A stretch of DNA of 64,000 nucleotides from Alphaproteobacteria bacterium (GCA_037200005.1 JBBCGY010000001.1:42416-106415), one strand, 5' to 3'; positions 1 to 27,187 are shown, counted from the first letter of the stretch. Notes: generated from the letters alone by a model not told the origin. Translations and numbers: made by a program.

Positions 1-8
1 TCACTTAA

Positions 9-38
9 CCGCGCACCGGCCTCCGATGCGCGGTTTTT
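9..38 (+). terminator. intrinsic terminator-like hairpin for a gene ending left of the window
   Basis: CCGCGCA (9-15) pairs with TGCGCGG (27-33) and is followed by T5 (34-38). Confidence 0.5.
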
Positions 39-59
39 CTATGCCGACTGATCGCCAAT

Positions 60-545
60 TTACGTTTTGAATGGATTATCGAAAACGAGACCGACCTTGC
101 CTGAGAGCGGCCAAATACCATGCTCAGAACCGAATCCTAATTCGAGGGAGAGTTCGCGCAAGGATTTAAAGATTAGAGAAAAGATGCTCCATATCTTACA
201 TGCGATAGAGACGACGTATTCTTTGACCCGCTCGATGAATTCGATAAGCGCATCTCTGGTTCGTCGTGCATAAGTTCTAAGAGAGGCCAACACGCTAGAG
301 GCCAAAGATTTTACATGCAGGAGAAATCGCTCGGCATGCCCTTTGGTCAATTCAACTCCTCTCGCTATTCTATCTGGCATGATGTCGCAATATTCTAGAA
401 AAGCAGAAAAAAGTTCACCTTCTTCCTTTGGAAATTCTCTAGTCGCATCGGTATCTTTGGCGATCCTTATGTCCTGTTTTAGACTCACGAGGATGGCATT
501 GACGGCTGCATCGTCAGCTTTTTCAGATAGTTCTAGAATAAGCAT
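60..545 (-). CDS. hypothetical protein (161 aa)
   Basis: Uninterrupted ORF in an AT-rich stretch with natural-looking helical, charged composition. No motif recognised. Confidence 0.5.
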   Translation of the reverse strand: MLILELSEKADDAAVNAILVSLKQDIRIAKDTDATREFPKEEGELFSAFLEYCDIMPDRIARGVELTKGHAERFLLHVKSLASSVLASLRTYARRTRDALIEFIERVKEYVVSIACKIWSIFSLIFKSLRELSLELGFGSEHGIWPLSGKVGLVFDNPFKT

Positions 546-745
546 GGGCTTGATCCTCCCCTATAGATTGCAAAGACTAAATTAAACACATCCATTCCTT
601 AGAATCCAAGCTTCTTCATACCGAACAACTGAAACATACACCGTTATGTGTCTGACCGATAAACCGTCAGCTACTGCTGCGCAGCATTTAAACGCACCCA
701 TCTCTTCAAAACAATTTCCCCCTCACCTCATAGAAAGGAAAGCAT

Positions 746-1006
746 ATGAAAACATCCATGTCCGAAATCATTGATCTTACCCTCACGCAAGCTATTGAGC
801 GTTACATGGAGATGGAGCCGGAGGCGGTTCACGATGCCATTGTCGCCGAATGGCCGGAACAACTGGCCGTCATTCTGGTGGAGTTCTTTTTCAAAACCAC
901 ATGCGGCAATTGCGACGGCTTGCCGGATTTTATCCAAATCCCAAGAGAGCAGAGCGACATTTATTACATCGTCCCGCTATGCGGCTGCGAATGGGGCGGC
1001 GAATAG
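746..1006 (+). CDS. hypothetical small Cys-containing protein (86 aa)
   Basis: ATG is preceded by AGAAAGGAAAGCAT. The same CATAGAAAGGAA upstream element precedes the next gene. It has CGNC...CGC cysteine pairs. Confidence 0.5.
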   Translation: MKTSMSEIIDLTLTQAIERYMEMEPEAVHDAIVAEWPEQLAVILVEFFFKTTCGNCDGLPDFIQIPREQSDIYYIVPLCGCEWGGE

Positions 1007-1091
1007 CGTCTTAACCATACTGAGGGCGTGCGCACGACTTCGCCAAAGATTTTAAGCCCCGATTATTCCAACCATAGAAAGGAACCCTATT

Positions 1092-1772
1092 ATGAAAGCC
1101 GGAAACACCCATACCACGCGCGAAAGCTGGCTGCGGTCGGCGACGAATGAATTACGCCCGTATTTCAGCAAGCTCGGCTACGAATTGCCGGAGAAGATTC
1201 GTTTTGCCATCGCGTTCACATCAACCGGCAAGCGCGGACACATGGCCGGAGAATGCTGGCATCCGGCGTCATCGGCAGACGGGCATTATGAAATCATCAT
1301 CCGCGCGGATATTGCCGATCCCGCAGAAGTCCTTGGCATTCTTGTGCACGAACTTGTGCATACGTTGTTGCCGCCCGAAGTGAAACACGGGAAAGAATTC
1401 AGAGCCATTGCGCTGCGCATCGGCCTTGAAGGCAAAATGCGCGAAACAACGCCCACGCCGATCTTGGCGGAGCGTTTAAACGCTATCGCCATCAATCTCG
1501 GCGCATTGCCTCACGCCAAACTTAATTTTTCCGAGAACGCCGATGCTCCCAAAAAACAAAAAACCCGCTGGCTGAAAGCTGAATGCGGCGCGGCTTGCGG
1601 TTATAGCGTTCAAATCACCGCTAAATGGGCGCGCGCCGGGCTTCCCATTTGTCCAATCGATACCGATCATGGCGCATTGATTTGCAATTTGCCGGATGAT
1701 GGCAAGGACGAAGAAATAACCATGGACAACAAATCGGACATGCAAACAAGCAAAGCAATTTTGCGTTCCTAA
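1092..1772 (+). CDS. SprT-like zinc metalloprotease domain protein
   Basis: HExxH motif (VHELVH) lies in an SprT-like context (ECWHP...YEIIIR). The C-terminus has a Cys-rich ribbon (CGAACG...CPIDTDHGALIC). A Shine-Dalgarno (SD) sequence GAAAGGAA is present. Confidence 0.7.
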   Translation: MKAGNTHTTRESWLRSATNELRPYFSKLGYELPEKIRFAIAFTSTGKRGHMAGECWHPASSADGHYEIIIRADIADPAEVLGILVHELVHTLLPPEVKHGKEFRAIALRIGLEGKMRETTPTPILAERLNAIAINLGALPHAKLNFSENADAPKKQKTRWLKAECGAACGYSVQITAKWARAGLPICPIDTDHGALICNLPDDGKDEEITMDNKSDMQTSKAILRS

Positions 1773-1823
1773 ATAACCGACATTGAGAAATTGATTTCGT
1801 CGCAGGCTCCGCAAGGTGTGGGT

Positions 1824-1872
1824 CGTGTGACGTTGTCACACGCCACCCCCTCTGTGTGACGCGTCACACAGA
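1824..1872. promoter_or_regulatory. two tandem palindromes sharing GTGTGAC/GTCACAC half-sites (candidate operator pair)
   Basis: CGTGTGAC-GTT-GTCACACG at 1824-1842 and TCTGTGTGAC-GC-GTCACACAGA at 1851-1872. Centres are about 28 bp apart. Confidence 0.4.
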
Positions 1873-1996
1873 GATAGCAGGGGCTTCGCCCCATGCACCC
1901 CCATATTCATTTCAGCGAGGATATTCACATGACTATTTCGCAAAAATCACGGTTATCAACCAAGTCCTTTCTCAGCATCCGCGAGAGAAAGACGGA

Positions 1997-2200
1997 ATGC
2001 AGTATCATTCCGTCAATATTGAGTCTCCAGTGTTGCCGACGCCGATCAATGCCGCGCTATTCCAGGACAAGGAGGATGACAGCAAGTTCAACCTCATATG
2101 GAACAGGCCGGAGCAGCAGGGACTCAAGGCCGAAGCCACCCTAAGCGTCGCGGGTCAGCCCCAATCCCGCCGCTTCTCCGGCCCGCGCGCAACGCCGTAG
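1997..2200 (+). CDS. possible small ORF (67 aa), hypothetical
   Basis: In-frame ATG inside ORF 1856..2200. It is bracketed by the twin palindromes upstream and a perfect hairpin 20 nt after its stop. The start and its reality are uncertain. Confidence 0.25.
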   Translation: MQYHSVNIESPVLPTPINAALFQDKEDDSKFNLIWNRPEQQGLKAEATLSVAGQPQSRRFSGPRATP

Positions 2201-2220
2201 GTAGTAACGGAGAGGACGAC

Positions 2221-2250
2221 ATCCCCGCAGGACGCTCGTCCTGCGGGGAT
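2221..2250 (+). terminator. perfect 14-bp-stem GC-rich hairpin (terminator-like, no U-tract)
   Basis: ATCCCCGCAGGACG-CT-CGTCCTGCGGGGAT. Confidence 0.35.
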
Positions 2251-2331
2251 TAATCGGAAAATATCGAACGAATGCCCTATGGCGCAATCCAGAGGCCGCC
2301 ATTATAATGCGCGGAAACTAAGGGATAGCAT

Positions 2332-3892
2332 ATGGCGCAAGCGAAAAAGGCAAAGAAACAGGGCGGCAATGGGGCTAATTTGGGGTTTGAAGCCCAGATG
2401 TTCCAAGCCGCCGACAAAATGCGCGGCAGCATGGATGCCAGCGAATATAAGCATGTCGCCCTGGGACTGATTTTCTTGAAATATATCTCCGACGCTTTTG
2501 AAGCCAGACATGCGACTGTCAAAGCGGACGGCGAGGACCCGGAAGACCGCGATTTTTATATCGCGGAAAATGTCTTCTGGGTTCCCAAAGAGGCCCGATG
2601 GAACCATCTACAAGCGAATGCCAAGCAACCGACCATCGGTAAATTGATTGATAATGCCATGCTGGCGATTGAGTCGGCGAATGCCTCTTTGAAGGGGGTT
2701 TTGCCAAAGGATTATGCCCGCCCAGCCCCTCAACAAACAAATGCTTGGCGAGCTGATCGACCTTATCAGCGGCATCGGGATGCATGAGGGCGCAGGCAAG
2801 AGCAAAGATATTCTTGGGCGCGTTTACGAATATTTCCTCGGTGGCTTTGCCGGAGCCGAAGGCAAGCGCGGCGGTGAATTTTATACGCCGCGTTCCGTAG
2901 TCATGCTGCTGGTTGAAATGCTGGAGCCTTATAAAGGCCGCATCTATGACCCTTGCTGCGGTTCGGGCGGCATGTTCGTTCAATCGGAGAAATTCGTGCT
3001 GGCGCATGGCGGGCGCATCGGCGACATCGCCATCTATGGCCAGGAAATGAATAACACCACATGGCGCTTGGCCAAAATGAATATGGCGGTGCGCGGCATT
3101 GACACGGATATTCGCTGGAACAATGAAGGCAGCTTCCATAAAGATGAATTCAAAGACTTGAAGGCCGATTATATCCTCGCCAATCCACCGTTCAACGTAT
3201 CGGATTGGGGAGCGGATCGCCTGCGCGAAGATGTGCGGTGGAAATACGGCTTGCCGCCTGCTGGCAATGCCAACTACGGCTGGCTACAGCATATCATCCA
3301 CCATTTAGCGCCGAATGGCGTTGCCGGCGTTGTGCTGGCCAATGGCAGCATGTCTTCCAATCAGTCCGGTGAAGGCGAAATCCGCAAGGCTATGATTGAA
3401 AAGGATTTGGTCGATTGCATGGTGGCCTTGCCAGGGCAGCTATTCTATTCAACCCAGATTCCGGCCTGCCTGTGGTTCTTGGCGCGGAACAAAAAAACAT
3501 CGCATCCGCGCAATCGCAGCGGCGAAGTCTTGTTCATTGATGCCCGGAAAATGGGTGTCATGATTGACCGCACCCGCCGTGAGTTAACGGAAGATGACGT
3601 TAAGAAGATCGGCGCTCTCTATCATGCCTGGCGCGGTGAAAAAGACGCCGGGAAATATGCCGACATTCCTGGTCTTTGCAAGGCGGCAAAGTTGGATGAA
3701 GTCTCCGGTCATGGCTTTGTCCTCACCCCTGGCCGCTATGTCGGCAGCGAAGCGGTGGAAGATGACGATGAACCGTTTGAGGTGAAATTTCCCCGACTGG
3801 TTGTTGAGTTGGAAAACCAGTTTGAAGAAAGCGATAAACTCACTGCCCAAATTCGGCGGAATCTGACTTTGTTGGGAGGGTCGCAAAAATGA
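2332..3892 (+). pseudogene. hsdM: type I restriction-modification methyltransferase subunit HsdM, frameshifted
   Basis: The HsdM N-terminal domain (ORF 2332..2787) and the methylase core (ORF 2714..3892) lie in different frames. Core motifs include [15 protein letters not shown] and NPPFN. Removing one C from the C4 run at 2726-2729 gives a continuous ...[19 protein letters not shown]... Confidence 0.85.
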
Positions 3893-4380
3893 CGCTCAAC
3901 CACAAATACATCAAACAGATATTGATTTCCTTGCGGGACAATCCAGCTCCCAGCATGGACAGTTATGATCTGGCAAAAATTTGTGGCGTTGATATGAACC
4001 ATATTGATGAATTGGCGTTTGGTAAGTTTGTGACCCAACTGCGCCTGCTAAAGGATATGGCATGCATAGACTGTCCCGTGGACAATCTCGGCTTTAGCCA
4101 GAACATCAATCGCCACTGGATAATTTGTCGCACCACCTATCGGCTCTCCAGCCAGGGGCACAGTTTTCTGGACACAGAAAACAAAAATACCCTGTTCAAT
4201 AAGGGAAAGGCGTTCTTCTTTTCAGCCTTTACGGAAGCTGGAAAGCGTTTTCTGATTCAGGCAATAACGGCAATTTTTATTGTTGTGCTGGCTACCGTTG
4301 CCGCAAACGCTGGTCTTTTCAAAATTTCGAGTTCGCATGGCCTAGCTAATCTCAAAAATCCAAAAGAGCGAGGGCTATGA
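3889..4380 (+). CDS. hypothetical protein, N-terminal wHTH-like (DUF2513-like) region plus C-terminal TM helix (163 aa)
   Basis: Its start overlaps the hsdM stop (ATGA) and its stop overlaps the hsdS start (ATGA). It has a hydrophobic segment [20 protein letters not shown]. The family call is inferred from the N-terminal pattern only. Confidence 0.55.
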
Positions 4381-5696
4381 TGTCTCTTTCGGAATGGCAA
4401 ATATTATCATTTAAAGAAGCTGGTGTTCAGTTGATTGATTGCGATCACAAAACACCCCCGGCATCTTCTTATGGGTATCCATATGTTACGATCCCTCAAA
4501 TCAAAAATGGGCGCATAGATGTGTCTGAAGCAAGGCGGATTACCGCAGAACATTTCAAAGAGTGGACAAGGAAGGCCAATCCAAAGCCCTTTGACGTTGT
4601 CTTATCTCGTAGATGCAACCCAGGAGAAACTGCCCATGTCCCTGCGGGGCTAGAGTTCGCTCTTGGACAAAATCTCGTTTTGTTGCGTGCAAATGGTGAA
4701 AAGGTATTTCCGCGATATTTACGATGGCTTACGCGGGGAGTGTTATGGTGGGAACAGATATCAAAGTTTATTAATGTGGGCGCCGTTTTCGATAGTTTGA
4801 GATGTGCGGACGTTCCAAATTTTCAATTTCCAATACCAGCACTGCATGAACAAAAAGCAATTGCTTCAATATTGACCGCACTGGACGATAAGATCGAACT
4901 GAACCGCCGGATGAATGCGAACCTGGAGGCGATGGCGCGGGCGGTGTTCAAAAGTTGGTTTGTCGATTTCGACCCCGTCCGCGCCAAAATGGCAGGCCGC
5001 CAACCCTTCGGTATGAGCGCGGCTACCGCTGCCTTGTTCCCCTCGCGCCTCGCCCCCTCCGAACTCGGCGATATTCCGGAGGGGTGGTCGGTCGATCAAA
5101 TCGGGAACGCGGTCACCGCCGTTGGCGGCAGCACCCCCAGCACCGAAAATCTAGAATATTGGACTGATGGGCAGTATGCCTGGGTAACGCCAAAAGACCT
5201 CTCTGCACTGAAATCGCCTGTTTTGTTCACAACGGAACGCAGGATAACAGATGCAGGAATCCGTGTTATCAGTTCCGGACTTCTGCCGTCGGGTACTGTT
5301 TTGATGTCTTCCCGTGCGCCAATCGGCTATATCGCAATCGCCGAAACGTCCGTTGCCATCAATCAAGGCTTCATAGCCATCGTTTGTGACAAAGAGCTTC
5401 CCAATTTATACGTCTGGCAATGGCTGCACGCCAATCTTGACATGATCAAAAGCCATGCAAACGGCTCAACCTTTCAGGAAATCAGCAAAGGCAGTTTCCG
5501 GCCTCTCCCCTGCATCATTCCATCAGCAAAGGTTCTCGAAAAATTTCAGGCAATCGTTTTGCCTATCTGGCAAAAACTCGTTGCGAATGAAAAAGAGTGT
5601 CTGGGGCTAGAAAAAACGCGCGACTACCTTCTTCCCAAACTAATCTCCGGCGACATCCGCATCCGCGACGCCGAGAAATTTATGGAGGCTGCATAA
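4377..5696 (+). CDS. hsdS: type I restriction-modification specificity subunit HsdS
   Basis: Two target-recognition halves are separated by the conserved central helix (LDDKIELNRRMNANLEAMARAVFKSWFVDFDP). The conserved C-terminal helix is LEKTRDYLLPKLISGDIRI. Confidence 0.85.
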   Translation: MMSLSEWQILSFKEAGVQLIDCDHKTPPASSYGYPYVTIPQIKNGRIDVSEARRITAEHFKEWTRKANPKPFDVVLSRRCNPGETAHVPAGLEFALGQNLVLLRANGEKVFPRYLRWLTRGVLWWEQISKFINVGAVFDSLRCADVPNFQFPIPALHEQKAIASILTALDDKIELNRRMNANLEAMARAVFKSWFVDFDPVRAKMAGRQPFGMSAATAALFPSRLAPSELGDIPEGWSVDQIGNAVTAVGGSTPSTENLEYWTDGQYAWVTPKDLSALKSPVLFTTERRITDAGIRVISSGLLPSGTVLMSSRAPIGYIAIAETSVAINQGFIAIVCDKELPNLYVWQWLHANLDMIKSHANGSTFQEISKGSFRPLPCIIPSAKVLEKFQAIVLPIWQKLVANEKECLGLEKTRDYLLPKLISGDIRIRDAEKFMEAA

Positions 5697-7150
5697 TGAA
5701 TCGCTGGGTAAATTCGTTCCAGAACCATCCTTTCCAAAAGCCATGGAAAGATATTGTGGAGCTTTCAGAAAAGATTGCTCTTCAAGATGAGACTGTCGCA
5801 ACTGACGTCCAAGAGCTTGCGCGTCTAAAAAAGGTTATAACCTATGTTGGCCAGTTAATAGGTGCAGCTGATCCGGAATTGATTCCATTAAGCATATGGA
5901 GTTCTTTTCAGGACCAGGCCACGCAGTGTGCAGATCAAATCAATCAGTACAACAGCAATAAGAACATTACTCACCTCAGCAACGCTAATAGCAATCTAGA
6001 TAATTTATTGACATATGTTCGCCCTTATGTGGTTTCTGCAGAGGGGGCGGCTCAGGCGGCAATGTCTGCGTTCATAGTGTATTCCGACACCATCAATACA
6101 CAGACCGATCTGATACAATCAAAAACCCAAGCCTCTGTTAACGGTACGCAGGCGAACAAAGAAAAGTCTGATGAAATATACAAAGAAATAGAGCAGTCAA
6201 AGCACAACATTCAACAATTGGAACAAAAATTTTTGATCGGCGATAGCAATGAGAAGAGCCTCCAGGAAAGAATGCAGATTCTTCTTGGGGAAGCCCAGGA
6301 GTGGAATAAAATAATTGGTGAGTTTCACAAACGGCTGACAAGCGGCAATGAACAAGAAAGCGCAATTTCGCTACAAATCGAAGAAGCAAAAAATAAAGCT
6401 ACTAAGGATAAGGAGGCTATAGAAAGTGCCCTTCAATTATCTGAAAATTTAATCAAAGACCTCAAAGAGTTTTATGAGCGAGTTTTTGGCAAAGAAGGCA
6501 GTGACGGAAACGTCATGGTCGGTCTAAAGCAAGAATTGGATAACCGCATTAAAGAGCTTGATAATTTTAAAATTAATCAAGGAACAGCCTACAATACCTT
6601 ATTTCAAAAAATTGAATCTCTACTGCCCGGAGCAACAAGCACTGGTCTTGCCAGTGCGTATAGAGAATTAAGAGACTCTTTTGCTGCGCCCATCAATATC
6701 TATACGCTAGTGTTTTGCTTCACCCTAGCAGTGATGTTTTTTGTTGGCTTGTGGGGTGTTGACTTCGGTGATGATGTGGGATTGAACAAGATGCTCGGCA
6801 GTCTCTATCACAAACTCCCACTTTTACTGCCCATCCTGTGGCTGGCAATTTTTGCTTCCAGACGAAGAAGCGAAAGTCAAAGGTTGCAACAAGAATATGC
6901 CCATAAAGAGGCGCTCGCAAAATCATTTCAAAGCTTCAAAAAACAAATTGATGCATTGCAGGAGAAGGACGAGGTCCTTACCAAGAAACTCCTGGATGCT
7001 ATGATCGGTGCCGTGTCCCATAATGCATCACAAACACTGGATGGAAAACATGGAGATAAAATTCCAACGCAAGAACTTCTAGAGGGAGTTATCAAGAAAT
7101 TTCCTGCGCAAAGCTTTTTTGAAAAATTAGTCGATAAAATCCTTAAATAG
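5696..7150 (+). CDS. coiled-coil protein with two C-proximal TM helices (484 aa), function unknown
   Basis: The ATG overlaps the hsdS stop (TAATG). About 340 aa are heptad-like and Q/E/K/N-rich. Then come TM segments (IYTLVFCFTLAVMFFVGLWGV; LPLLLPILWLAIFA), an RRRSESQRLQQEYAHKEALAKSF segment and a helical tail. Confidence 0.65.
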   Translation: MNRWVNSFQNHPFQKPWKDIVELSEKIALQDETVATDVQELARLKKVITYVGQLIGAADPELIPLSIWSSFQDQATQCADQINQYNSNKNITHLSNANSNLDNLLTYVRPYVVSAEGAAQAAMSAFIVYSDTINTQTDLIQSKTQASVNGTQANKEKSDEIYKEIEQSKHNIQQLEQKFLIGDSNEKSLQERMQILLGEAQEWNKIIGEFHKRLTSGNEQESAISLQIEEAKNKATKDKEAIESALQLSENLIKDLKEFYERVFGKEGSDGNVMVGLKQELDNRIKELDNFKINQGTAYNTLFQKIESLLPGATSTGLASAYRELRDSFAAPINIYTLVFCFTLAVMFFVGLWGVDFGDDVGLNKMLGSLYHKLPLLLPILWLAIFASRRRSESQRLQQEYAHKEALAKSFQSFKKQIDALQEKDEVLTKKLLDAMIGAVSHNASQTLDGKHGDKIPTQELLEGVIKKFPAQSFFEKLVDKILK

Positions 7151-7233
7151 GGAACAATGTGAATGGTCTGTTAGGGGCAAAAAACTCGTCACATCCAACT
7201 TATCAAGTACGTTCCTCGGAAAGAGCTACTCAC

Positions 7234-8319
7234 ATGACCTTTGACCGCAACACACCCTACAACGATCTTCCGCTTTTGCCACCGGCGCAGATCGACCTGG
7301 AAACAAAGCCTATTCTCAAAAAGGCGATCACGGCGAATATCGCGCTTGCCAAGCTGTTCGACGCGGGAAAGTTGATTCCCAATCAGGCGCTTCTGGTTCA
7401 GGCGATTGGGTTGCAGGAAGCCAAGCTGTCCAGTGAAATCGAGAATATCGTCACGACCAATGACGATCTTTACCGCGCTTTCGCGGATGAGGGCGTGCAT
7501 TCCAGCCCCGCAGCCAAAGAGGTTCTGTTTTACAAGGACGCGCTCTGGAAAGGCTATAACGCGATCAAACTGGAAAAGCGCCCGCTCTCCACGCGCCTTT
7601 TTGAAGATACGTTCCGCATTATCAAGCAATCCTCTGACGGCATCCGGCGTTTGCCGGGCACGAAATTATCGAACCCGGCAGGCGAGATTATCTACACGCC
7701 GCCCGAAGGCGAAAATCTTTTGCGTGACAAGCTCTCCAATCTCGAAAAATTTCTTTACGCCGAAGACGGGCTTGATCCTTTGATCAAAATGGCCGTCATG
7801 CACTATCAATTCGAGGCTATTCATCCCTTCACCGACGGCAATGGGCGCACGGGGCGCATTCTCAATCTTTTATATTTGATCGAGTGCGGGTTGCTGGAGA
7901 TTCCGGTTTTGTATCTATCCCGCTACATCATCGAACACAAAACGGATTATTATCTGGGACTGCGCGGCGTAACCGAGGGGCAAAATTGGGAATCGTGGAT
8001 TCTCTATATTCTCGATGCGATTGAAGTGACGGCGCAGATGACCAGAGATCGGATTCTTCGCATTCATTCTTTAATGGACAAGACGGCGGAGGCGGTCAAA
8101 GCCCAGGCTCCCAAAATCTATTCCAAAGACCTTATTGAGGTGATTTTCCGCCAACCCTACTGTAAAATTCGCTTTTTGGAGGAGGCAGGGATTGCCCAAA
8201 GGCAGACCGCCTCCACTTATCTCTCCAAATTAGAGGCTTTGGGTATTTTGGAGTCCGTAAAGGCTGGACGCGAGAAATATTATATTAATCCGGCATTCTT
8301 TAACCTTTTGGCAGAATGA
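7234..8319 (+). CDS. Fic family protein (AMPylase-type), class with N-terminal inhibitory helix
   Basis: Fic motif HPFTDGNGRTGR is present. SSEIEN fits the inhibitory [ST]xxxE[GN] motif. The N-terminus PYNDLPLLPP is typical of the Fic_N domain, and the tail is wHTH-like. An alternative GTG start exists at 7159. Confidence 0.85.
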   Translation: MTFDRNTPYNDLPLLPPAQIDLETKPILKKAITANIALAKLFDAGKLIPNQALLVQAIGLQEAKLSSEIENIVTTNDDLYRAFADEGVHSSPAAKEVLFYKDALWKGYNAIKLEKRPLSTRLFEDTFRIIKQSSDGIRRLPGTKLSNPAGEIIYTPPEGENLLRDKLSNLEKFLYAEDGLDPLIKMAVMHYQFEAIHPFTDGNGRTGRILNLLYLIECGLLEIPVLYLSRYIIEHKTDYYLGLRGVTEGQNWESWILYILDAIEVTAQMTRDRILRIHSLMDKTAEAVKAQAPKIYSKDLIEVIFRQPYCKIRFLEEAGIAQRQTASTYLSKLEALGILESVKAGREKYYINPAFFNLLAE

Positions 8320-8385
8320 CATGGTTATTTTCTGCATGTTTATGAAGTGCTTAGGTGATATGTTGTTTTGATCGACACATCGTTC

Positions 8386-8422
8386 CAACATGTCGAAAAA
8401 ATCAGAAAATTTCGACATGTTG
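8386..8422. promoter_or_regulatory. 13-bp perfect inverted repeat between fic and hsdR
   Basis: CAACATGTCGAAA (8386-8398) and TTTCGACATGTTG (8410-8422) have an A-rich 11-nt spacer. This may be an operator or a bidirectional hairpin. Confidence 0.3.
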
Positions 8423-8503
8423 AGGCTTGTGCCCTTGTTGGTTCTAAAATGCGCTTAACCGAGGCCAAACAGGCAACGGCATCGCAGTCCAAAGAGAAAA
8501 TCG

Positions 8504-11500
8504 ATGGTCGCTGACATTCAATACACCCAGCCGGAACCGAATTATGACGGATTCCGCGAAGCGCATGTTGAAGAAGCAACTTTCGATTGGCTCTCTGGGC
8601 TTGGCTGGACACTCGCGCATGGGCCGGATTTGGCACCGGAAGGCAAAGCCCCGGAGCGGGCCAGTTATGGCGACGTGCTGTTGTTGGGGCGGTTGAGGAC
8701 AGCCTTGGCCGCGATCAACCCGCAACTCCCCGCCGATGCGATTGACGACGTGGTGCGTAAGATTATCGCAGTCGAAATGCCGTCTTTGGTCGAAGAAAAC
8801 CGGCGCTTGCATAAACTGATGGTCGATGGCGTGGCTGTGCAATACATGCAGGCCGACGGCACGATCAAAAACGACATCGCGTGGCTGATCGACTGGGAAA
8901 ACAAAAAGAACGATTGGCTGGCCGTCAATCAATTCACGGTCATCGAAGAACGCAACAATCGCCGCCCCGACGTGGTGATGTTTATCAACGGTTTGCCCCT
9001 TGCCGTTATTGAATTGAAGAACGCGGGAGACGAAAACGCGACAATCGAAGGCGCGTTCCGCCAGACGCAAGCTTACAAGCAATTGATCCCTTCTCTGTTT
9101 CGCACGAACGGCATACTGATTATTTCCGACGGACTGAAAGCCCGCATCGGCAGCCTGACCGCAGATTATGAGCGTTTCATGCCATGGCGCACGGTGGATG
9201 GGGCCGGTGTCGCGGCCAAAGGAACGCCCGAATTACACACAATGATTCACGGCGTTTTTGAGCAAGGGCGTTTTCTGGAGTTATTGCGCCGGTTCACCGT
9301 GTTTCAAAGCAACGGCAAAGATATTTTCAAAATCGTAGCAGGATATCACCAGTTCCACGCCGTAAAGCTCGCCGTTGCCAGCACCATCGACGCAACGGCC
9401 AGTGAAGGAAATCGCAAAGTCGGCGTCATCTGGCATACGCAAGGATCGGGCAAAAGCCTGTTGATGGCATTTTATGCGGGCAGCGTGATTGCCAATCCTG
9501 CGATGGCCAATCCGACTCTGGTTGTGCTGACCGACCGGAATGATCTGGACGACCAGCTTTTTTAACACTTTCAGCCTATCTCGTGATCTTATCCGCCAGA
9601 CGCCCGCGCAAGCGGGAGATCGCGATGAATTGCGGAAGCTTCTGGCGGTATCATCTGGCGGCGTTATCTTTACGACCATTCAAAAATTTCTGCCCGCTGA
9701 TAGTGAAAAAACTTTCCCGCTGTTGACTGACCGCAAGAATGTCATCGTCATCGCCGATGAAGCGCACCGCAGCCAATATGGCTTCAAGGCCAAGTTGGAT
9801 AAAAAGTCGGGCGAATTAGCTTATGGTTTTGCGAAACACCTGCGCGATGCGCTGCCGAATGCGTCCTTCATTGGCTTTACAGGAACGCCTATTGAGAAAG
9901 CAGATGTCAATACGCCCGCCGTATTCGGCGATTATATTGATGTCTATGATATTCAACGCGCGGTCGAAGACGGCGCGACGGTGCCAATCTATTACGAAAG
10001 CCGCCTAGCCAAACTCCAGCTTGACGAAGAGGAAGTCAAAAATCTTGATGCTGAGGTCGAAGAACTGACCGAAGACGAAGAATCCAGCGAGCGCGAGCGT
10101 AAGAAAAGCAAATGGTCGCGCGTTGAAGCCCTGTGGGAGCCGAAACACGCTTGGCTCAAGTAGCCGCCGATATTGTTCAGCATTTTGAGAACCGTATCAG
10201 CGCCTTAGACGGCAAAGGCATGACCGTATGCATGAGTCGCCGTATTTGCGTGGCGCTCTATAACGAGATTATTAAATTACGGCCCGCATGGCATTCAGAC
10301 GATGACGCGCAAGGCGCTATCAAGATTGTGATGACGGGCAATATCGCCAACGATCCGCCTGAATGGTTGAAACATACGGGCAGCAAGGCGCGCCGTGATT
10401 TCCTGGCAAAGCGGGCGCGCGACGCTAAAGACCCGCTAAAACTTGTTATCGTTCGTGATATGTGGCTTACGGGCTTTGATGCGCCCTGCATGCACACGAT
10501 GTATGTCGATAAGCCGATGCATGGTCATGGCTTGATGCAGGCCATTGCCCGTGTAAATCGCGTATTCCGCGACAAGCCAGGCGGCTTGATCGTTGATTAT
10601 ATCGGGATTGCCCATAATCTGAAACAAGCTCTCTCTATTTATTCCCCCGGCGACCGCGAAGAAGTCGGCATTGACGAGCAGCAAGCCGTCGCAGAGATGA
10701 TGCGCCGCTATGAAATCGTCCGGGATATGTTTTATGGATTCGATTATATGCGCGCGCTGCACGGCACACCGGCTGAACGCTTAGTGCTGATGGCCGAGGC
10801 TCTGGAGTGGATTCTCGATTTGCAGCAACGTGAAGCTGCAAAAGAACAGACCGAACAAGCCAGGAAAGAGGTGCGCCGCAAATTCTCAGACGCCGTTGTT
10901 GGCTTATCGCGCGCCTATGCGCTGGCCGCAACCTCGCCAGAAGCGGGGAAAATTCGTGATGAAGTCGGTTTCTTCCAGGCTATTCGTGCAGCCCTGGCAA
11001 AAAATGAGCCGGGCAAAGGTAGCACACAGGCGGAAATCGATGTGGCCGTCCAACAAATGGTCAGTCGTGCCGTGGTGTCAACGGAGATTGTCGATATTCT
11101 GGCGGCGGCAGGCATTAGAACCCCGGATATATCCATCCTCTCAGATGAATTTCTGGCAGAAATTCAAGGCATGAAGAAGCGTAACCTTGCATTGGAAGCC
11201 TTACAGAAACTCATCAATGGAGAAATAAAATCCCGCATCAAATCGAACGTGGTGCAATCTAAGAAATTCAGCGAACGACTGGAAGCCGCCGTCCGGCGCT
11301 ATCATAACAACGCTATAACTGCCGCGCAGCTTTTGGAGGAGCTGATTGCCATCGCAAAGGATATTAAAGCTGACCGCGAACGAGGAGAAGAACAAGGACT
11401 TAGCGAAGAGGAAATCGCTTTTTATGATGCTCTGGCTGAAAATGAAAGCGCATTGCAGTTGTTGGGCGATGAGAAATTACGAGTGATTGCTACTGAACTG

Positions 11501-11680
11501 GTTGTCTCCGTTCGCAATAATGTGTCTGTTGACTGGATGCACCGCGATAGCGCCCGCGCCAAGTTGCGCATCGAAGTCAAAAAGATTCTCAAGAAATATG
11601 GCTATCCGCCAGATTTACAGGATGCAGCGGTGCAACTGGTGTTGCAGCAGGCCGAAGTTTTGGCCCCACTCTGGGCATAA
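8504..11680 (+). pseudogene. hsdR: type I restriction endonuclease subunit HsdR, two frameshifts
   Basis: Three consecutive ORFs (8504..9565, 9540..10163, 10133..11680) each carry bona fide HsdR sequence (DEAH box DEAHRSQYG, helicase C, C-terminal domain). An extra T in the T6 run at 9558-9563 gives DQLF*. A missing G near 10131-10136 makes expected ...[13 protein letters not shown] read EALWEPKH. Confidence 0.85.
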
Positions 11681-11772
11681 CAATCGCTGACGGCGATCTT
11701 TGGAATTCTATGTAAGAGGCTGCAACAGGTAAGGCCAGATTATGACCGAGAGGAACGAAGATTCTTAAACAA

Positions 11773-12903
11773 TCAAAGCGCCAGCCGGGGCCGGATTAGC
11801 GACAAAGGCCGGGCAGTGGAAAGCTGGAGGCCAACAGCTTCGTTTGGAACATTGGAAAAATCGGTAATAAGCGGCAGCATGGCGTTAGGGCCAAGGGCGC
11901 GTGGTGAGGCACCTAGTTCTTTAAGAGCGGAAACAATTTCCGGTTCATTTAGCGCATGAATGCGCATAAGGGGTTGCGTAGTGTCAGGAATCCATTTCCT
12001 GCGCGAGACTTCATCGCGGCCCGTCGAGATAAGTGCCGCGACCACGTCCTTGAGTTTGTCGCCTTTCGGCAGATTGCCGTTGCTGGTGATTTGAGCGCGG
12101 ACAATCGGCTCGCCCAGGAAGGTCGAAATGGCTTCCGTAAAACTGGCGGCGATTTTCTGATTGCCGTCCTCACTTTGCCAATTCGCCAGGAACACATTTG
12201 GCAAGCTGGAGTCTTTGCCGGGTTTCGCGGCGAAGTCCGCGAGCTGGATTGCAACTCGTGAGCGGCCCGTTTCAATGGGCGCATCGCCGATAAATTCCAG
12301 AACGGCGCTATCGTCCGGCGCTCCCATCGTCGCACCGAGTTTCTTGAAGATGCCGGTCATGGCCGCATTGCCGCCCGCATATTCGCCGACGCGGCCGCGC
12401 GAGACGAGGCCATAGGGCGAATAGCCTTGTTCGCGGCTGACGGATCGCCGGATTTTCTCGTAGATAAAATGCGAGCCAAGTCCAATGCCATTCGGGTATT
12501 CCGCGCTTTTTGTGCGATTACGGAATTCCTGGGATAGTTCCGGCGACACATAGGTATCTTCGCCATAGATAGCAGGATAATGGCGGAAATCCCGGCCATT
12601 GCGTTCCGTGAGAACGGTCGGAAACTCGATTGAGCCACCGGCGAGTTTGGGGCTGCAATTTTCCCACTCCACGATGGCGAAATAAGCCTGAATTTTATTT
12701 TTCTTGATGGCCTCGATAACTTTGCCGAATTTGGCGTTATCAGCGGACGCTCCATGCGTCACGGCTTCACTTTCGACGATTCTATAAAGAATCTCATCAA
12801 GCGCCATATGATGAACGACGTCCGTACCGTTCATGCGCACGATGCTGGCTTTGGCGTTTCCCGGCAGCAGACCGGGCATATTATCGAGCGCAACGGAAGA
12901 CAT
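11773..12903 (-). CDS. protein of unrecognised family (376 aa), paralog of 24000..25298
   Basis: Intact ORF with SD AAGGGGA. Its start lies 2 nt after the XRE gene stop. Long blocks are shared with the 432-aa paralog (HYPAIYGEDT, YPNG[IL]GLG, IAASFT..IST..G.PIVR.Q.TSNGNLP, MRIHAL..PEIV.ALK.LGA.PR.LGP). Confidence 0.7.
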   Translation of the reverse strand: MSSVALDNMPGLLPGNAKASIVRMNGTDVVHHMALDEILYRIVESEAVTHGASADNAKFGKVIEAIKKNKIQAYFAIVEWENCSPKLAGGSIEFPTVLTERNGRDFRHYPAIYGEDTYVSPELSQEFRNRTKSAEYPNGIGLGSHFIYEKIRRSVSREQGYSPYGLVSRGRVGEYAGGNAAMTGIFKKLGATMGAPDDSAVLEFIGDAPIETGRSRVAIQLADFAAKPGKDSSLPNVFLANWQSEDGNQKIAASFTEAISTFLGEPIVRAQITSNGNLPKGDKLKDVVAALISTGRDEVSRRKWIPDTTQPLMRIHALNEPEIVSALKELGASPRALGPNAMLPLITDFSNVPNEAVGLQLSTARPLSLIRPRLAL

Positions 12904-12905
12904 GA

Positions 12906-13556
12906 TTATATTTTCCCCTTGTCGTCGGGGATCGAAGCATTTTCCCAGAATGATTCAAATTGCTCGACATATCTTTCGGCCAAGGGCTTGGAGTGTATCG
13001 AAACGACTTCGACATTATGATCGCTGCGATGCACCGCCTGGGCGATATAGTCATTATAGACGTAATAGGGAATGAGGATTTTCGTCGTCTTATCCAGCCA
13101 GCGATATTCGCAATAGCTGGCGGAGAAATTATAGTCGCCATCCAGGATAAGAACGCGGGCGTCAAGATTCGGAAGCTTGCTCATTCTTTCCATATGCTCG
13201 GTCGCATAATCTTGCGCATAGGAAAGGGTCTTGCCGTCGCTGGAATTAAACTGGCGAATGCGTCCACCGTCTTTCAGCGTTTCGTATATATGATCGAGGA
13301 ATTGTCGGTATCCGGCTTTGCCCGAAAAAACCCTGACTTGGTTTCTCCGCATCCGAACGCCCTCGTCATCCAGGAATTCGACGCCGTGCCGGTCGAAAGC
13401 ATTGGTTATGCTGGCGATGGTCTTCTCATGCGGTTGTACCGTATCGGCCTCGATTTTGCTCACGGTCACGCGGGTAAGCCCGGCCTCCCTAGCCAAGTCT
13501 TCCGCTTTCCATTCCAGTAAGCTGCGCGCTGCGCGAATTTGACGCCCGGTAATCAT
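12906..13556 (-). CDS. XRE-family HTH regulator with uncharacterised C-terminal domain (216 aa)
   Basis: N-terminal HTH: GRQIRAARSLLEWKAEDLAREAGLTRVTVSKIE. It is the first gene of a two-gene minus-strand unit. Confidence 0.75.
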   Translation of the reverse strand: MITGRQIRAARSLLEWKAEDLAREAGLTRVTVSKIEADTVQPHEKTIASITNAFDRHGVEFLDDEGVRMRRNQVRVFSGKAGYRQFLDHIYETLKDGGRIRQFNSSDGKTLSYAQDYATEHMERMSKLPNLDARVLILDGDYNFSASYCEYRWLDKTTKILIPYYVYNDYIAQAVHRSDHNVEVVSIHSKPLAERYVEQFESFWENASIPDDKGKI

Positions 13557-14820: not shown

Positions 14821-17800
14821 ATGGTGGCACCTGCGAAGAAATTTCACGAAGCGAACGGCGAACTCACCAATGAGGCAGGGGCAACGCGACCGCCGCTCTC
14901 GAGGAACAGCCTCTGGCGGACACTGCGCCCCGGGATCTCGGTGGGAGTAAGCCTCGCGGCAGTCGTCGCTTGCGAAAGCGGCGAACCCAACGCTTCAAAT
15001 GACAACATCGTTTCGATTTCCCAAGCGATAGGCTCTGCGACAATCTATAGCTTGCCTACCAATGTTTTGATGCCCAATGCCATCAATAATCAAAATCTCA
15101 TTGTGGGCCAGGGTCTGCCTTCGATCTATGATGCCAACACGGGAACATTTAGTAGCCTTGAAGTAAACCAGCCTTCGGGGGCGGTCACTTCCTATGCAAT
15201 TAGCAATGCCGGTCACGTTGTCGGCAATTCATTCAATGTTGGGCCGGTTTCCAATTCGGCGTTCATTTCACAGGGCGGACATTTGTCCGATCTATACGCC
15301 GGCAACAACAACGGGGTGACCAGCGTCGCTTACGGCGTCAACAATTATGGCCAAGTCGTCGGCACGATGCCGGTGACGGTCAACGATGCGAACAATAGTC
15401 CACATCCTTTCACGCATGCGTTCTCGTGGCAGGGCAGCGTTACAGACCTTACACCGAACTACTATGGAAATTCAGCCGCCTATGGCATCAACGATGCTGG
15501 GCAGATCGTGGGAACGATAGGAACTGCGGGGGTCAAGTGGCAGGGCGGATCGTCAAGCACGCTGCCGAGCGGCACCAGCACGCCCGCCATGATCAACAAT
15601 GTCGGTCAGATCGTCGGGACATATAGTTCAGGCGGTTCGTCGCACGCTTTCCTTGTGCAGAGCGGCACCCTGACCGATCTCGGAGCCATACAGGGAAGCA
15701 CACCTGTGAGGATCAACAACAAAGGACAAGTTACGGGCGGCTTCTACAACACGGGTGCCGGACAATATTACCCGAGCGTCTGGCAGAATGGCGTCGTGGT
15801 TACGATTCCCACTCTGTCGGGCATTCCCGCAGGCTGGTCTATCACGTCGATAAACGGCATCAATGACAGCGGAACCGTCGTAGGGCAAGGCACGCTTTCG
15901 GGTTCTTCACGGGGTTTTTACCTAACTTCGCCGCAGCTTCTGAACTACGCCATTGCCGGAAAGCCCTACGATCCGAAAGCGAATGGTGGTGAGGATTCGG
16001 CGTCAACCCCGACAGACGATCTATGTGGAACTCATGGCATGTGTGTGCCCAACGCGCAATTGCTGTCGGCCAGCTTGAATTTGAACGATACGCCGATTGG
16101 GTATCAGCCGCCCAAAGGGCCACCAGCCTATATCCGGCTTACATATAATCATCGTGACAGTGTCGCGCCCAGCAGCACTTCCTCGCATGTTGGGCCAAAC
16201 TGGACTCTGAATGTCATTTCTTACATTCAGGATGATCCGGCCAGCCCGGGCCAGAGCGTCACGCGCAACGTGGCGGGCGGCGGTATCGTCGACTACACTT
16301 TTGAGGCAGGGCAGTTCAATACCACCACGGGTGCATTCGGGCCGGAGAAGCAAACCGGGGCGATCTTGAAACGGACTCCCGCGACAGGGTTCAGCGCCAG
16401 TGCTTCCTATGAGCTTTCCTTTCCCGATGGGGCCAAGCAAATATTCTCCTACCCGGATGGAAGCTTCAATTATCCGCGCCGCGCATTCCTGACGGATATC
16501 GTTGATGCCTCAGGCCAGGGCCTGCATTTTGGCTACAATTATCTTCAAGGAACTTTCGGCGCGATCAATTGCACGCCGGGATGTCCGCAACTGCAATCAG
16601 TTTCTGATGCTAATTTCCGTGCAACAAACTTCGTCTACGGTGACGCATCTAATGTCTTGCGCGTGACGCGGATTAATGACCCGTTCGGGCGTCACGCCGA
16701 TTTAGCTTATGATGGCAGCGGACGGCTTTCGTCAATCACGGATGTGATCGGCATTCAATCGTCTTTCACCTATGACACCACCGACCCTACTTTCATCAAA
16801 AAGCTAACGACACCCTATGGCGATAGCAATTTCGTCTTTGGGCAAGATACGGCGACGGATCGTCGTTGGCTCACACTCTCCGATGCCGTGGGCAATACGG
16901 AAAAAGTGGAATACCGGGGCAGCAGCGCCAGCGGCATAGCGGCGTGCGACAAAAACACGAGCGATGCGTCGTGCAGTGTCTCGACCTCCGTGCCGACAGG
17001 CATGCCTAACGGCATCAATAACGCCGATCTCGACAAGCGCAACACCTTTGTCTGGAACAAATGGATGTATGCGAATGGCTATGGCAGCGATTACACGCAG
17101 GCGAATGTTACCCATTGGCTCAAGGACGGTGCGGGCAATCCCGTGGGGATTCCGGAAAGCGTCAAGCCGCTGTACGAATCCCGCATTTGGTATAATTATC
17201 CCGGCCAGAACGATCCTAGCACCCCAGGAACCCTGTCTGTGCCGAGGGCGACGGGCCGCGTGATCACCGATCCGCTTTACGGGCAAGCGCCGCAGAATCA
17301 GGTTTACCAAAGTCAATATAACAGCCTCGGCAAGCCCACCTTGACCGTCGATCCCTACAAGGTTTCAGGCAACAACAATGAAGGCCGAACTACACGCATG
17401 ACCTATGATGCCTCCGGCGTCGATCTTTTGACGGTGGAACAGAAAACCGGCAGCGGAACGCCGGGGACATGGGCGACGATTGCTTCCTACGTCTATACCG
17501 ATCCGACAGAACAGCCCACATCGATCCACAAACCGATCCGCTATACCGACGCGGCGGGGCAAACTTATAAATTCAAATACAATGGCGACGGCCAATTGAT
17601 CTATGCCGCCAATCCCTACAACGATACGACGTATAATGAATATCATCCGTCCGGCAAGCTCCTGCGGACGACCATGCCTGTGCCGAGCGTAAACTGGAAT
17701 ACCATCGATTATGGAACCGATATTAACGGCGCGCCGACGGGGGCGAGCAACAGCAGCGCCCTAAGGGACACCGCCATTACCTACGACTCCGCCGATCGTC

Positions 17801-23999: not shown

Positions 24000-25298
24000 A
24001 TGAATCAGGCATTTAACTCCGATCCCTATAAGCGCCTGCCCGGCGGCATCCGGGCGGCGGTTTTGCCGATGCAGGGGGCCGACCTTGTGCATCAAGCCAC
24101 GCTCGGCGCGGCGCTTGAGCATATCATCGGTCATGAGGCTGCGGTTCATGAAGCGGCTTTCCAAAGCCAGCATTTTCACAAGATTTTGAAGGCAAGCGAG
24201 AAAGGCGAAATCAACGTCCTTTTTCTTATGGCCGCGATGCATACATGTTTGCCGAAATTGGCGGGCGCGGCGATTGAACTTCCGACCGTCATTACGAAAT
24301 GGCAAGGCAACGAGTTTAAGCACTATCCCGCCATCTATGGCGAAGATACATGCGTTCTGCCGGAATTCTCCAAAACCTTCCGCGAAAAGACGGCGGGCGC
24401 GCTTTATCCTAATGGCCTGGGCCTTGGCACATGGTTCGCCAAAGAACGGATCGAAGGATCGGTATCGGGCCGCTCTGGGTTCGCGCCTCTCGGCATGGTG
24501 TCCCAAGGCCGTGTTTGTGAATATTCCGGGCATAACGGGCCGATGATTGGACTCTTGAACAAATTCGGTGCAACGACTGCGCCGGACGCGAGCGCAGTCC
24601 TCGAACTCGACGGCCTCACTCCCACGATGAAAAGCCGCTGGCAAGTGCCGGTCGATACTGAAGCCTTGGCCGATCAGAACGGCAAGCCCCTCGACAATAT
24701 TTTCGTAACGAGATGGTCAGGCGAAAGCGGCAAGCAACAAATCGCCGCAAGCTTTACGAAAACCATCTCCACCTTTACCGGCGATCCTATTGTGCGCGTT
24801 CAGCTAACGAGCAACGGCAATCTTCCGAATGGCGATATGCTGCAAAATGTACTATCTTCACTGCTGGCTGCCGGTCACGACGAAATCCGCGAGCGGAAAT
24901 GGGCCATAGCAGGCGAATTAAAAAGTGTTGCTAGCAACCGAAGCCCGATCATCCCGCTCCTTGCTTCCCGGCAGCAGCAAATGGCTGCGCTTCTGTCCGC
25001 AGGGCGAGATGAAATTCTATCCCGGCGTATCGGCATGGATGATTTAAGCCATATTTTCGGCGGCGCGGTTCCGACAATGCGGATTCATGCGCTCAGGAAG
25101 CCGGAAATAGTCGCGGCCTTGAAAGACTTAGGTGCACAACCCCGTATTCTCGGCCCCCACGTCATGCTGCCCGCGATTATGGACTTCGCCAATATGCCGC
25201 AGGAGGCGCTTAATTTCGATCTGCCCCCGGCGAGGCCGCTGAATACGGTCAATCATAGAGGCGCAACCAGCACGCCGCTTTTCTCTCTGGCGGCATAA
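24000..25298 (+). CDS. protein of unrecognised family (432 aa), paralog of 11773..12903
   Basis: Collinear similarity to the 376-aa protein over its whole length. It has an extra ~50-aa segment that duplicates the LL[AS]AG[HR]DEI..R motif. Confidence 0.7.
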   Translation: MNQAFNSDPYKRLPGGIRAAVLPMQGADLVHQATLGAALEHIIGHEAAVHEAAFQSQHFHKILKASEKGEINVLFLMAAMHTCLPKLAGAAIELPTVITKWQGNEFKHYPAIYGEDTCVLPEFSKTFREKTAGALYPNGLGLGTWFAKERIEGSVSGRSGFAPLGMVSQGRVCEYSGHNGPMIGLLNKFGATTAPDASAVLELDGLTPTMKSRWQVPVDTEALADQNGKPLDNIFVTRWSGESGKQQIAASFTKTISTFTGDPIVRVQLTSNGNLPNGDMLQNVLSSLLAAGHDEIRERKWAIAGELKSVASNRSPIIPLLASRQQQMAALLSAGRDEILSRRIGMDDLSHIFGGAVPTMRIHALRKPEIVAALKDLGAQPRILGPHVMLPAIMDFANMPQEALNFDLPPARPLNTVNHRGATSTPLFSLAA

Positions 25299-25584: not shown

Positions 25585-25776
25585 ATGAGCCAGGAAGCAT
25601 ATCGCGTGAAAGAATTCTGCAACCGCTACGCCATTTCAAAAGCCAGCTTCTACCGGGAAACAGCGGCGAAGCGGCTGCATATCCTAAAACGTGGCCGTAC
25701 AACGCTCGTTGCCCGCACCGAAGCCGAACGCTGGTTTGAAAGCCTTGGCCAAGGCCAGCCGCAGCAATCAGCCTGA
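25585..25776 (+). CDS. excisionase/AlpA-like small HTH DNA-binding protein (63 aa)
   Basis: SD AGGGAGGA. The pattern YRVKEFCNRYAISKASFYR...RWF resembles MerR-superfamily excisionases. It lies immediately upstream of the integrase. Confidence 0.65.
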   Translation: MSQEAYRVKEFCNRYAISKASFYRETAAKRLHILKRGRTTLVARTEAERWFESLGQGQPQQSA

Positions 25777-25843
25777 TCGCATTCAATATCCCGAATATTT
25801 CCAAAGCCATTTTTCGTCAATCTTATTCTCATGGAGGCATGTC

Positions 25844-27111: not shown

Positions 27112-27187
27112 GACCTTGTAGCTCAGCCGGTAGAGCATCTGACTTTTAATCAGGGGGTCGCGGGTTCGAACCCCGCCGAGGTCACCA
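27112..27187 (+). tRNA. tRNA-Lys (anticodon UUU), CCA encoded
   Basis: Manual cloverleaf. Acceptor GACCTTG/CGAGGTC, D arm GCTC-AGCCGGTA-GAGC, anticodon loop CTTTTAA, T arm GCGGG-TTCGAAC-CCCGC, discriminator A, CCA. Confidence 0.9.

Follow-up and report, generated by a model that had tools for sequence, protein, structure and literature searches.

Do three genes lodged inside a Type I restriction-modification (R-M) operon form one defence system, or are they separate passengers of the same operon? This question is raised by a stretch of 64,000 nt from an Alphaproteobacteria bacterium (GCA_037200005.1, JBBCGY010000001.1:42416-106415), hereafter the window, from whose first letter all coordinates are counted. 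Its plus strand carries a Type I R-M operon at 2332-11680 with three interleaved extra open reading frames (ORFs), the gene order being hsdM, orf163, hsdS, orf484, fic and hsdR. A reading made without database searches (the sequence-only reading) had proposed that orf163, orf484 and fic make up an undescribed trio, whose integrity beside a decayed hsdM and hsdR would speak for independent selection. Our results point in a different direction. We give a probability of roughly 0.75 to the reading that these genes are three independent passengers in the two inter-subunit slots of one Type I operon, located in a tRNA-Lys-integrated island. Each of the three is distributed in its own way, and no passenger requires another.

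Against a conserved trio speaks that its members do not keep company elsewhere, whichever gene the search starts from. For orf484 we scanned one genome per species; this yielded 103 loci, and we retained 80 of them. Among these 80 loci none contains an orf163 homologue and none has a Fic gene adjacent to the orf484 homologue, with a single weak Fic-like match about 4 kb away in L059. From the Fic side, neither an orf484 nor an orf163 homologue was found in the four closest contexts that we looked up, and from the orf163 side the trio was absent from both loci available (P0122 and P0123), the latter lying in a plasmid-like context without orf484, a SoFic gene or hsd genes. Because orf163, orf484 and the Fic gene do not co-occur elsewhere, we see no three-gene system here, and the proposal that the trio is conserved independently of hsd genes has to be given up. 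Lack of co-occurrence and a match to an already catalogued system were the two outcomes which the sequence-only reading had itself named as speaking against it, and both were observed, the second for fic. What does hold from that reading is the more general picture, in which a Type I R-M operon harbours genes foreign to R-M, of the prrC or rlo kind, and at least one of these genes is a bona fide defence gene.

The defence gene is fic (7234..8319, plus strand), which encodes a 361-aa class II Fic AMPylase of the SoFic type. Its product matches the Pfam domains Fic_N (E 9.4e-24), Fic (E 7.9e-15) and SoFic-like_C (E 1.8e-33), and nearly the whole of the PADLOC SoFic model PDLC03963 (E 2.7e-115, covering 11-359 of its 361 positions). 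In the 361-aa protein the catalytic motif HPFTDGNGRTGR is found at residue 197 and SSEIEN, the inhibitory motif of class II, at residue 66, in agreement with the autoinhibition that had been proposed for it. With SoFic it shares the order Fic_N, Fic and SoFic-like_C, the HxFxDGNGRxxR motif and the N-terminal inhibitory SxxxEN helix. It differs from the NCBIfam SoFic equivalog NF046030 in its score, 484 bits against a cutoff of 550. By its PADLOC and Pfam matches we therefore assign the protein to the SoFic family, under the strict equivalog threshold of NCBI. SoFic is a published single-protein abortive-infection defence that acts as an AMPylase (PMC12249575), and its description as a single-gene anti-phage system is credited to Millman et al. 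2022 (as cited in PMC12249575). What sets the window gene apart from described SoFic is its location inside a Type I R-M operon and the conserved palindromic spacer on its 3' side.

The genomic contexts of this Fic clade indicate that its location in the window is habitual. We sampled four contexts among the closest homologues, with 89%, 78%, 71% and 69% identity. In all four the SoFic gene follows hsdM and hsdS of a Type I operon, and a called hsdR follows in three of them, no hsdR being called after SoFic in L093. The SoFic start overlaps the hsdS stop in two of the four. Since all the contexts looked up follow hsdM-hsdS, the SoFic clade is itself a habitual passenger of the slot between hsdS and hsdR. 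In L091 and L093 the SoFic start is overlapped by a preceding small ORF of 37 or 45 aa, and other passengers of 154 aa, 287 aa and 266 aa precede SoFic in these loci (L091:5514-7004, L093:6077-7011). None of these pre-SoFic passengers has a PADLOC match, and the 287-aa one shows faint pentapeptide-repeat matches.

The passenger upstream of hsdS, orf163 (3889..4380, plus strand), is a rarer gene. The sequence-only reading had described its product as a winged-helix protein with a transmembrane (TM) segment; the single C-terminal TM helix stands, at residues 121-139, and the region in front of it is best described as DUF2513-like. The N-terminal 110 or so residues align from end to end with DUF2513 and phrog_585, covering DUF2513 profile positions 2-93 of 100. 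The match to phrog_585 has an E-value of 4.4e-9, and the one to DUF2513 (PF10711) reaches 19.7 bits, below the Pfam cutoff of 29.6. From its Pfam clan we take DUF2513 to be a helix-turn-helix (HTH)-like fold. A full HMMER scan of 1.84 billion representatives placed the relatives of orf163 in 32 clusters, and among its phmmer relatives P0127, P0128, P0130 and P0142 do pass the DUF2513 cutoff, with 32.8-41.5 bits. On these sequence comparisons we consider orf163 a rare and divergent DUF2513-like protein whose membership of DUF2513 is transitive only. Unlike DUF2513, it scores below the cutoff and carries the C-terminal TM helix; most of its relatives (121-164 aa) are too short for a comparable C-terminal extension. 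A search of PADLOC-DB v2.0.0, including the HEC and PDC candidates, returned no family for orf163 at E <= 0.01. Its single-sequence AlphaFold 2 (AF2) fold, with a predicted local distance difference test (pLDDT) score of 46, was too poor to use.

Homologues of orf163 are found both with and without hsd genes. In the word-indexed search the sole other homologue was P0122 (70% identity), which is located directly 5' of an hsdS gene and overlaps it. P0123 (58% identity) lies in the plasmid-like region already mentioned, which encodes RPA, ParA and an integrase. The 188-aa and 173-aa ORFs that occupy the position of orf163 in two related hsd operons (L001 and L083) are unrelated to it.

The third passenger, orf484 (5696..7150, plus strand), belongs to an uncharacterised family of about 485 aa which turned out to be large. 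Among the candidates scored, 1,210 clusters at 90% identity were found at E <= 1e-3, none of them named and almost all with 480-500 aa. In alignment A1, which comprises 25 members (the window copy and 24 homologues), the architecture is that of a conserved N-terminal helical domain, a variable central coiled coil, a TM hairpin and a highly conserved juxtamembrane C-terminus. Invariant in this alignment are the N-terminal domain (MSRWxxxFxNHxF...NANxxLDNLLxYxRPY), the block LLPGATSAGLAxAY immediately before the first TM helix, and, behind the second hydrophobic helix, KRRSExxRLQQEYAHKEALAKSY and NASxTLDxKHGDK. AF2 predicts an all-helical fold (pLDDT 72, predicted template modelling score (pTM) 0.39), and the protein has one strong TM helix (337-355) and a second, weaker hydrophobic helix, so its earlier description as a long coiled-coil protein with two TM segments was correct.

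Searches for a known relative of orf484 were consistently negative. No family was returned from Pfam, NCBIfam or PADLOC-DB v2.0.0 with its HEC and PDC candidates at E <= 0.01, and coiled-coil noise was all that came from the family profile against PDB sequences, from all 25 members against Pfam at E <= 1 and from the fold against PDB and BFVD. We also found no match to Pfam SLATT or another known 2TM effector family, and tblastn against plasmid and phage collections gave no match. Our literature search found no described coiled-coil/TM protein embedded in a Type I R-M operon.

The 80 loci show that orf484 is a large, patchily distributed family and usually a solo gene. In about 60 of them, roughly three quarters, it stands alone with no hsd genes within 10 kb, with intergenic gaps of 100-600 nt and unrelated neighbours that differ even between species of one genus. 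No remnants of an hsdS tail were found 5' of the solo copies. In 18 of the 80 loci the homologue is found in or beside a Type I operon, mostly in the order hsdM-hsdS-X-hsdR, and in 13 of these 18 its start abuts or overlaps the upstream stop. The order in L083 is hsdM-hsdS-X-hsdR with the same 1-nt overlap as in the window, and the hsdS-hsdR slot is likewise filled by an orf484 homologue in three C. concisus loci (L067, L071 and L072). Copies joined to hsdS are spread over Alpha-, Beta- and Gammaproteobacteria and Campylobacter. In the loci nearest to the window copy the co-passengers vary: RhuM, the 188-aa ORF and a Schlafen-AlbA_2 gene in L001; RhuM, the 173-aa ORF and DUF3644 in L083. The homologue in L081 has an integrase and ArdA in its locus and no hsd genes at all.

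We also considered whether orf484 has a conserved partner. A DUF4268/PD-(D/E)XK protein adjoins orf484 homologues at L025:9984-11171, L066:1067-2191 and L076:8516-9658. The L025 copy is the PADLOC candidate PDC-S11 (E 1e-173) and the other two cluster with it (cluster c25). As PDC-S11 was found in these 3 loci only and DUF3644 in one, the idea of a partner was rejected, and PDC-S11 beside orf484 is another embedded passenger.

The integrity of the passengers beside decayed hsd genes had been a main argument for independent selection, and this argument is much weakened because the hsdR frameshifts are missing from an independent assembly. HsdM, HsdS and HsdR were all matched together in Pfam and PADLOC, in agreement with a Type I system. 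In the window hsdR (8504..11680, plus strand) is present as three ORFs with the Pfam matches HSDR_N, SWI2_SNF2, T1R_D3-like and T1RH-like_C. For comparison we used the Logan assembly L087 (run SRR28211700), which covers window positions 1-13375 and differs from them, over 13,376 bp, by two single-base indels only, an extra T in a T-run at 9558 (T6 versus T5) and one missing T at 10132. Both are exactly the hsdR frameshift sites that we mapped with intact homologues. As L087 encodes an intact HsdR from a single gene of 1,058 aa, the apparent decay of hsdR reflects a discrepancy between assemblies or, at most, variation within the population. The frameshift in hsdM (2332..3892, plus strand; Pfam HsdM_N E 1.4e-25, N6_Mtase E 3.3e-108) is a different case and is found in both assemblies. 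Mapped against the intact 517-aa homologue of L001, whose gene is 86-89% identical, it is a one-base insertion in a C-rich stretch (2684-2727) that splits the gene into an HsdM_N piece (2332-2787) and an N6_Mtase piece (2714-3892). Of the two subunits that had been described as decayed, only hsdM is frameshifted in both assemblies. Apparent pseudogenisation in this metagenome-assembled genome can be an assembly artefact, and pseudogene calls need caution. The specificity gene hsdS (4377..5696, plus strand) is intact; its 439-aa product has two target-recognition domains and matches Pfam Methylase_S in two stretches (E 3.4e-28) and PADLOC Specificity_I over its full length (E 1.9e-119).

The tight junctions of the passengers had also been stressed. 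The gene order and the three junctions had been given exactly: the hsdM stop overlaps the orf163 start in ATGA at 3889 (aaaaATGAcg), the orf163 stop overlaps the hsdS start in ATGA at 4377 (ctATGAtg), and the hsdS stop overlaps the orf484 start in TAATG at 5696 (gcaTAATGaa). At all three a Shine-Dalgarno-like GGAGG or GGGAGG is found within the 3' end of the upstream gene. The overlapping codons thus join orf163 and orf484 to the hsd genes, and do not include fic. Its ORF is open from GTG 7159, and the gene call of NCBI starts at ATG 7234. The start is most likely ATG 7234, not overlapped by orf484, because its homologues are 360-361 aa long and the match to the NCBIfam model does not set in before residue 28 of the long ORF. 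From this start fic lies 83 nt 3' of orf484 and 184 nt 5' of hsdR. Several further same-strand overlaps of the ATGA type are found in the gene list of the window, and the same type of junction is found in related hsd operons. Overlaps of four bases are ordinary here and indicate operon membership, nothing more unusual. A promoter and terminator scan of 1800-12000 gave no more sites than shuffled sequence, and for this reason we do not claim an internal promoter. In a megablast search with 2300-11700 no E. coli genome matched, and plasmids gave short hsd fragments only.

How could unrelated genes come to be joined so precisely to hsd genes? Two of the related loci carry what look like scars of exchange. 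In L081 a 57-aa ORF fuses the HsdM N-terminus to the C-terminal tail of HsdS, and the same HsdS tail recurs in another ORF just before the orf484 homologue (L081:7235-8001). In L001 (11487-12936) a fragment of the hsdR head is followed by a second hsdS tail, then a passenger and then the hsdR head again, the stop of the second hsdS tail overlapping the start of the Schlafen-AlbA_2 passenger. These scars fit a process in which cassettes composed of an hsdS tail, a gene and an hsdR head would pass from one hsd operon to another by homologous recombination, for which the 3' end of hsdS and the 5' end of hsdR would provide the conserved stretches. As such a unit would span the hsdS tail through to the hsdR head, the overlapping junction would be inherited with the cassette. 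The overlaps and the internal Shine-Dalgarno sites would then provide a passenger with the transcription and translation of the operon, and they may be the normal mode of insertion of such cassettes and not the sign of a functional trio. We also searched for duplicated hsdS-tail or hsdR-head fragments in the window and found none.

Embedding of this kind is a general phenomenon of Type I R-M, BREX, DISARM and Hma loci, for which Payne et al. 2024 (bioRxiv 10.1101/2024.01.29.577857) report 17,432 genes that belong to 3,231 families. We regard the locus as a new instance of this known pattern, in which Type I R-M operons come to hold defence genes. Like the embedded HEC and PDC candidates, its passengers are unrelated single genes nested in such an operon, and PDC-S11 is even a neighbour of orf484 homologues; unlike these candidates, orf484 and orf163 match no model in PADLOC v2.0.0.

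One further feature of the operon may belong to the SoFic cassette. The fic-hsdR spacer contains a perfect 13-bp inverted repeat, CAACATGTCGAAA-N11-TTTCGACATGTTG (8386..8422), located 82 nt 5' of hsdR. Its core (TGTCGAAA/TTTCGACA) is kept 3' of SoFic in L091 (about 8160-8195) and L093 (about 8150-8190), and in L094 (about 8155-8190) the left arm is kept and the right arm reads ATCGACA. These hsd operons, in which Fic identity goes down to 69%, also retain an upstream ATCGACA half-site 3' of SoFic. The letters of the arms are unchanged and show no covariation, which favours a putative operator bound by a protein over an RNA hairpin. The palindrome has the appearance of an operator that goes with the SoFic cassette, and candidate binders are the SoFic C-terminal winged helix or an XRE protein encoded nearby. 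A 62-aa ORF on the minus strand (8230-8418) starts in the palindrome and overlaps the fic 3' end, and plus-strand mini-ORFs of 16-22 aa also begin there. We had considered an antitoxin like AS1 of E. coli at this position and rejected it, as none of the small ORFs that overlap the palindrome is conserved at the protein level in L091, L093 or L094.

If each passenger acts on its own, SoFic would AMPylate its targets upon infection, in line with its published activity (PMC12249575). For orf484 we tentatively suggest an autonomous membrane-acting protein with a role in abortive infection or exclusion. Its cytoplasmic N-terminal domain would act as a sensor, the coiled coil would transmit the signal, and the TM hairpin with the juxtamembrane region would disrupt the membrane. 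The family as a whole might then be an undescribed single-gene anti-phage system of the inner membrane that has repeatedly been captured in the PrrC slot as a recombination cassette, a possibility that we hold at somewhat below even odds. Several observations weigh against it. The candidate defence role of orf484 comes from its context only, and the 80 loci, having been found with two peptide patterns, are a biased sample. The neighbours of solo copies are mostly housekeeping genes with scattered defence or mobile genes (such as PD-Lambda-5, PifA, reverse transcriptases, PDC-S11 and integrases), so that enrichment in islands is weak outside hsd loci. The AF2 model is of moderate confidence by both of its scores and the second TM helix is weakly hydrophobic in the window copy. 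This copy also lacks about 9-11 residues between the first TM helix and the periplasmic loop (residues about 345-360, window 6700-6780, A1 columns about 378-392), a segment present in all 24 homologues; it is otherwise of full length and has all the invariant motifs.

Other explanations of the locus have to be weighed against three independent passengers. That orf163, orf484 and Fic are after all one novel defence system wired into a decaying hsd operon is very improbable in our view. The three ORFs are indeed intact and co-oriented in one operon, two of them joined to hsd genes by overlapping codons, and hsdM is frameshifted in both assemblies. Against this stand the missing co-occurrence from all three sides, the published assays in which SoFic works alone (PMC12249575), the intact hsdR of L087 and the gap between fic and orf484. 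A guard function comparable to that of PrrC deserves more attention: orf484 would be held inactive by the HsdMS/HsdR complex and, once the enzyme is disabled by an anti-restriction protein of a phage, would be set free to damage the membrane. The logic has been described for PrrC (PMC2610378), and orf484 occupies the slot of prrC, after hsdS and before hsdR. In at least 13 loci, which come from several classes of proteobacteria, it has a tight junction with hsdS, and ArdA adjoins the copy in L081. We nevertheless disfavour a guard, and consider it improbable, because about three quarters of the orf484 copies are solo, with no hsdS-tail remnants beside them, while PrrC itself is almost exclusively embedded (bioRxiv 10.1101/2024.01.29.577857). 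In its distribution orf484 is more similar to RloC, a "restriction-linked" gene that is mostly found outside R-M loci (8 of 72 copies lie inside them; PMC2610378), as a minority of the orf484 family (18 of 80) is R-M-linked. Unlike PrrC, RloC and the rlo genes, orf484 is a helical membrane protein that has no sequence similarity to them and contains neither ABC-ATPase motifs nor the Arg-Glu-His triad of the anticodon nuclease; the absence of an ATPase or nuclease domain counts against the guard as well.

A rather unlikely reading, which we take more seriously than the guard, is that orf484, orf163 or both have no defence function and hitch-hike in a permissive operon as accessory membrane or regulatory proteins. 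They might, for example, anchor something to the membrane, control the expression of hsd or be cargo of a mobile element. Neither of them matches a known defence model, and the largely housekeeping neighbourhood of the solo orf484 copies fits such a reading too. The position of orf163, with its DUF2513-type N-terminus, between the hsdM and hsdS genes could suit a regulator, and the 58% homologue of orf163 is found in a plasmid maintenance region. A patchy distribution shaped by horizontal transfer, a locus that differs in every species and the recurrent and precise insertion of orf484 into R-M operons near PDC-S11, RhuM, DUF3644 and SoFic argue in the other direction, and we prefer to see three independent passengers with orf484 as a candidate defence gene.

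The surroundings of the operon are those of a mobile island. A tyrosine integrase (25691-27031, plus strand, Pfam Phage_integrase E 6e-29) is followed by tRNA-Lys(TTT) (27112-27187, plus strand, ARAGORN), and the hsd locus lies inside the element bounded by them, which extends beyond the left edge of the window. SprT-like and DUF736 genes are found 5' of hsdM. On the 3' side of the operon there are an XRE regulator paired with a 376-aa gene, a LuxR regulator and an RHS toxin, the last encoded by an RHS-repeat gene of 1,793 aa (14821-20202). The 376-aa gene (11773-12903, minus strand) is separated by a gap of 2 nt from the XRE-type HTH gene (12906-13556), which has a weak PADLOC match to control-protein or RmrA-like HTH models. 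It has a 432-aa paralogue in the window (24000-25298, plus strand; 44% identity, E 3e-119), and neither paralogue has a Pfam or PADLOC match.

Beyond this one locus, orf484 marks a large, well-conserved and unannotated protein family and is a well-defined candidate for a single-gene defence. The cassette scars in related operons, together with the palindrome linked to SoFic, suggest how passengers of Type I R-M operons are exchanged and, possibly, how they are regulated.

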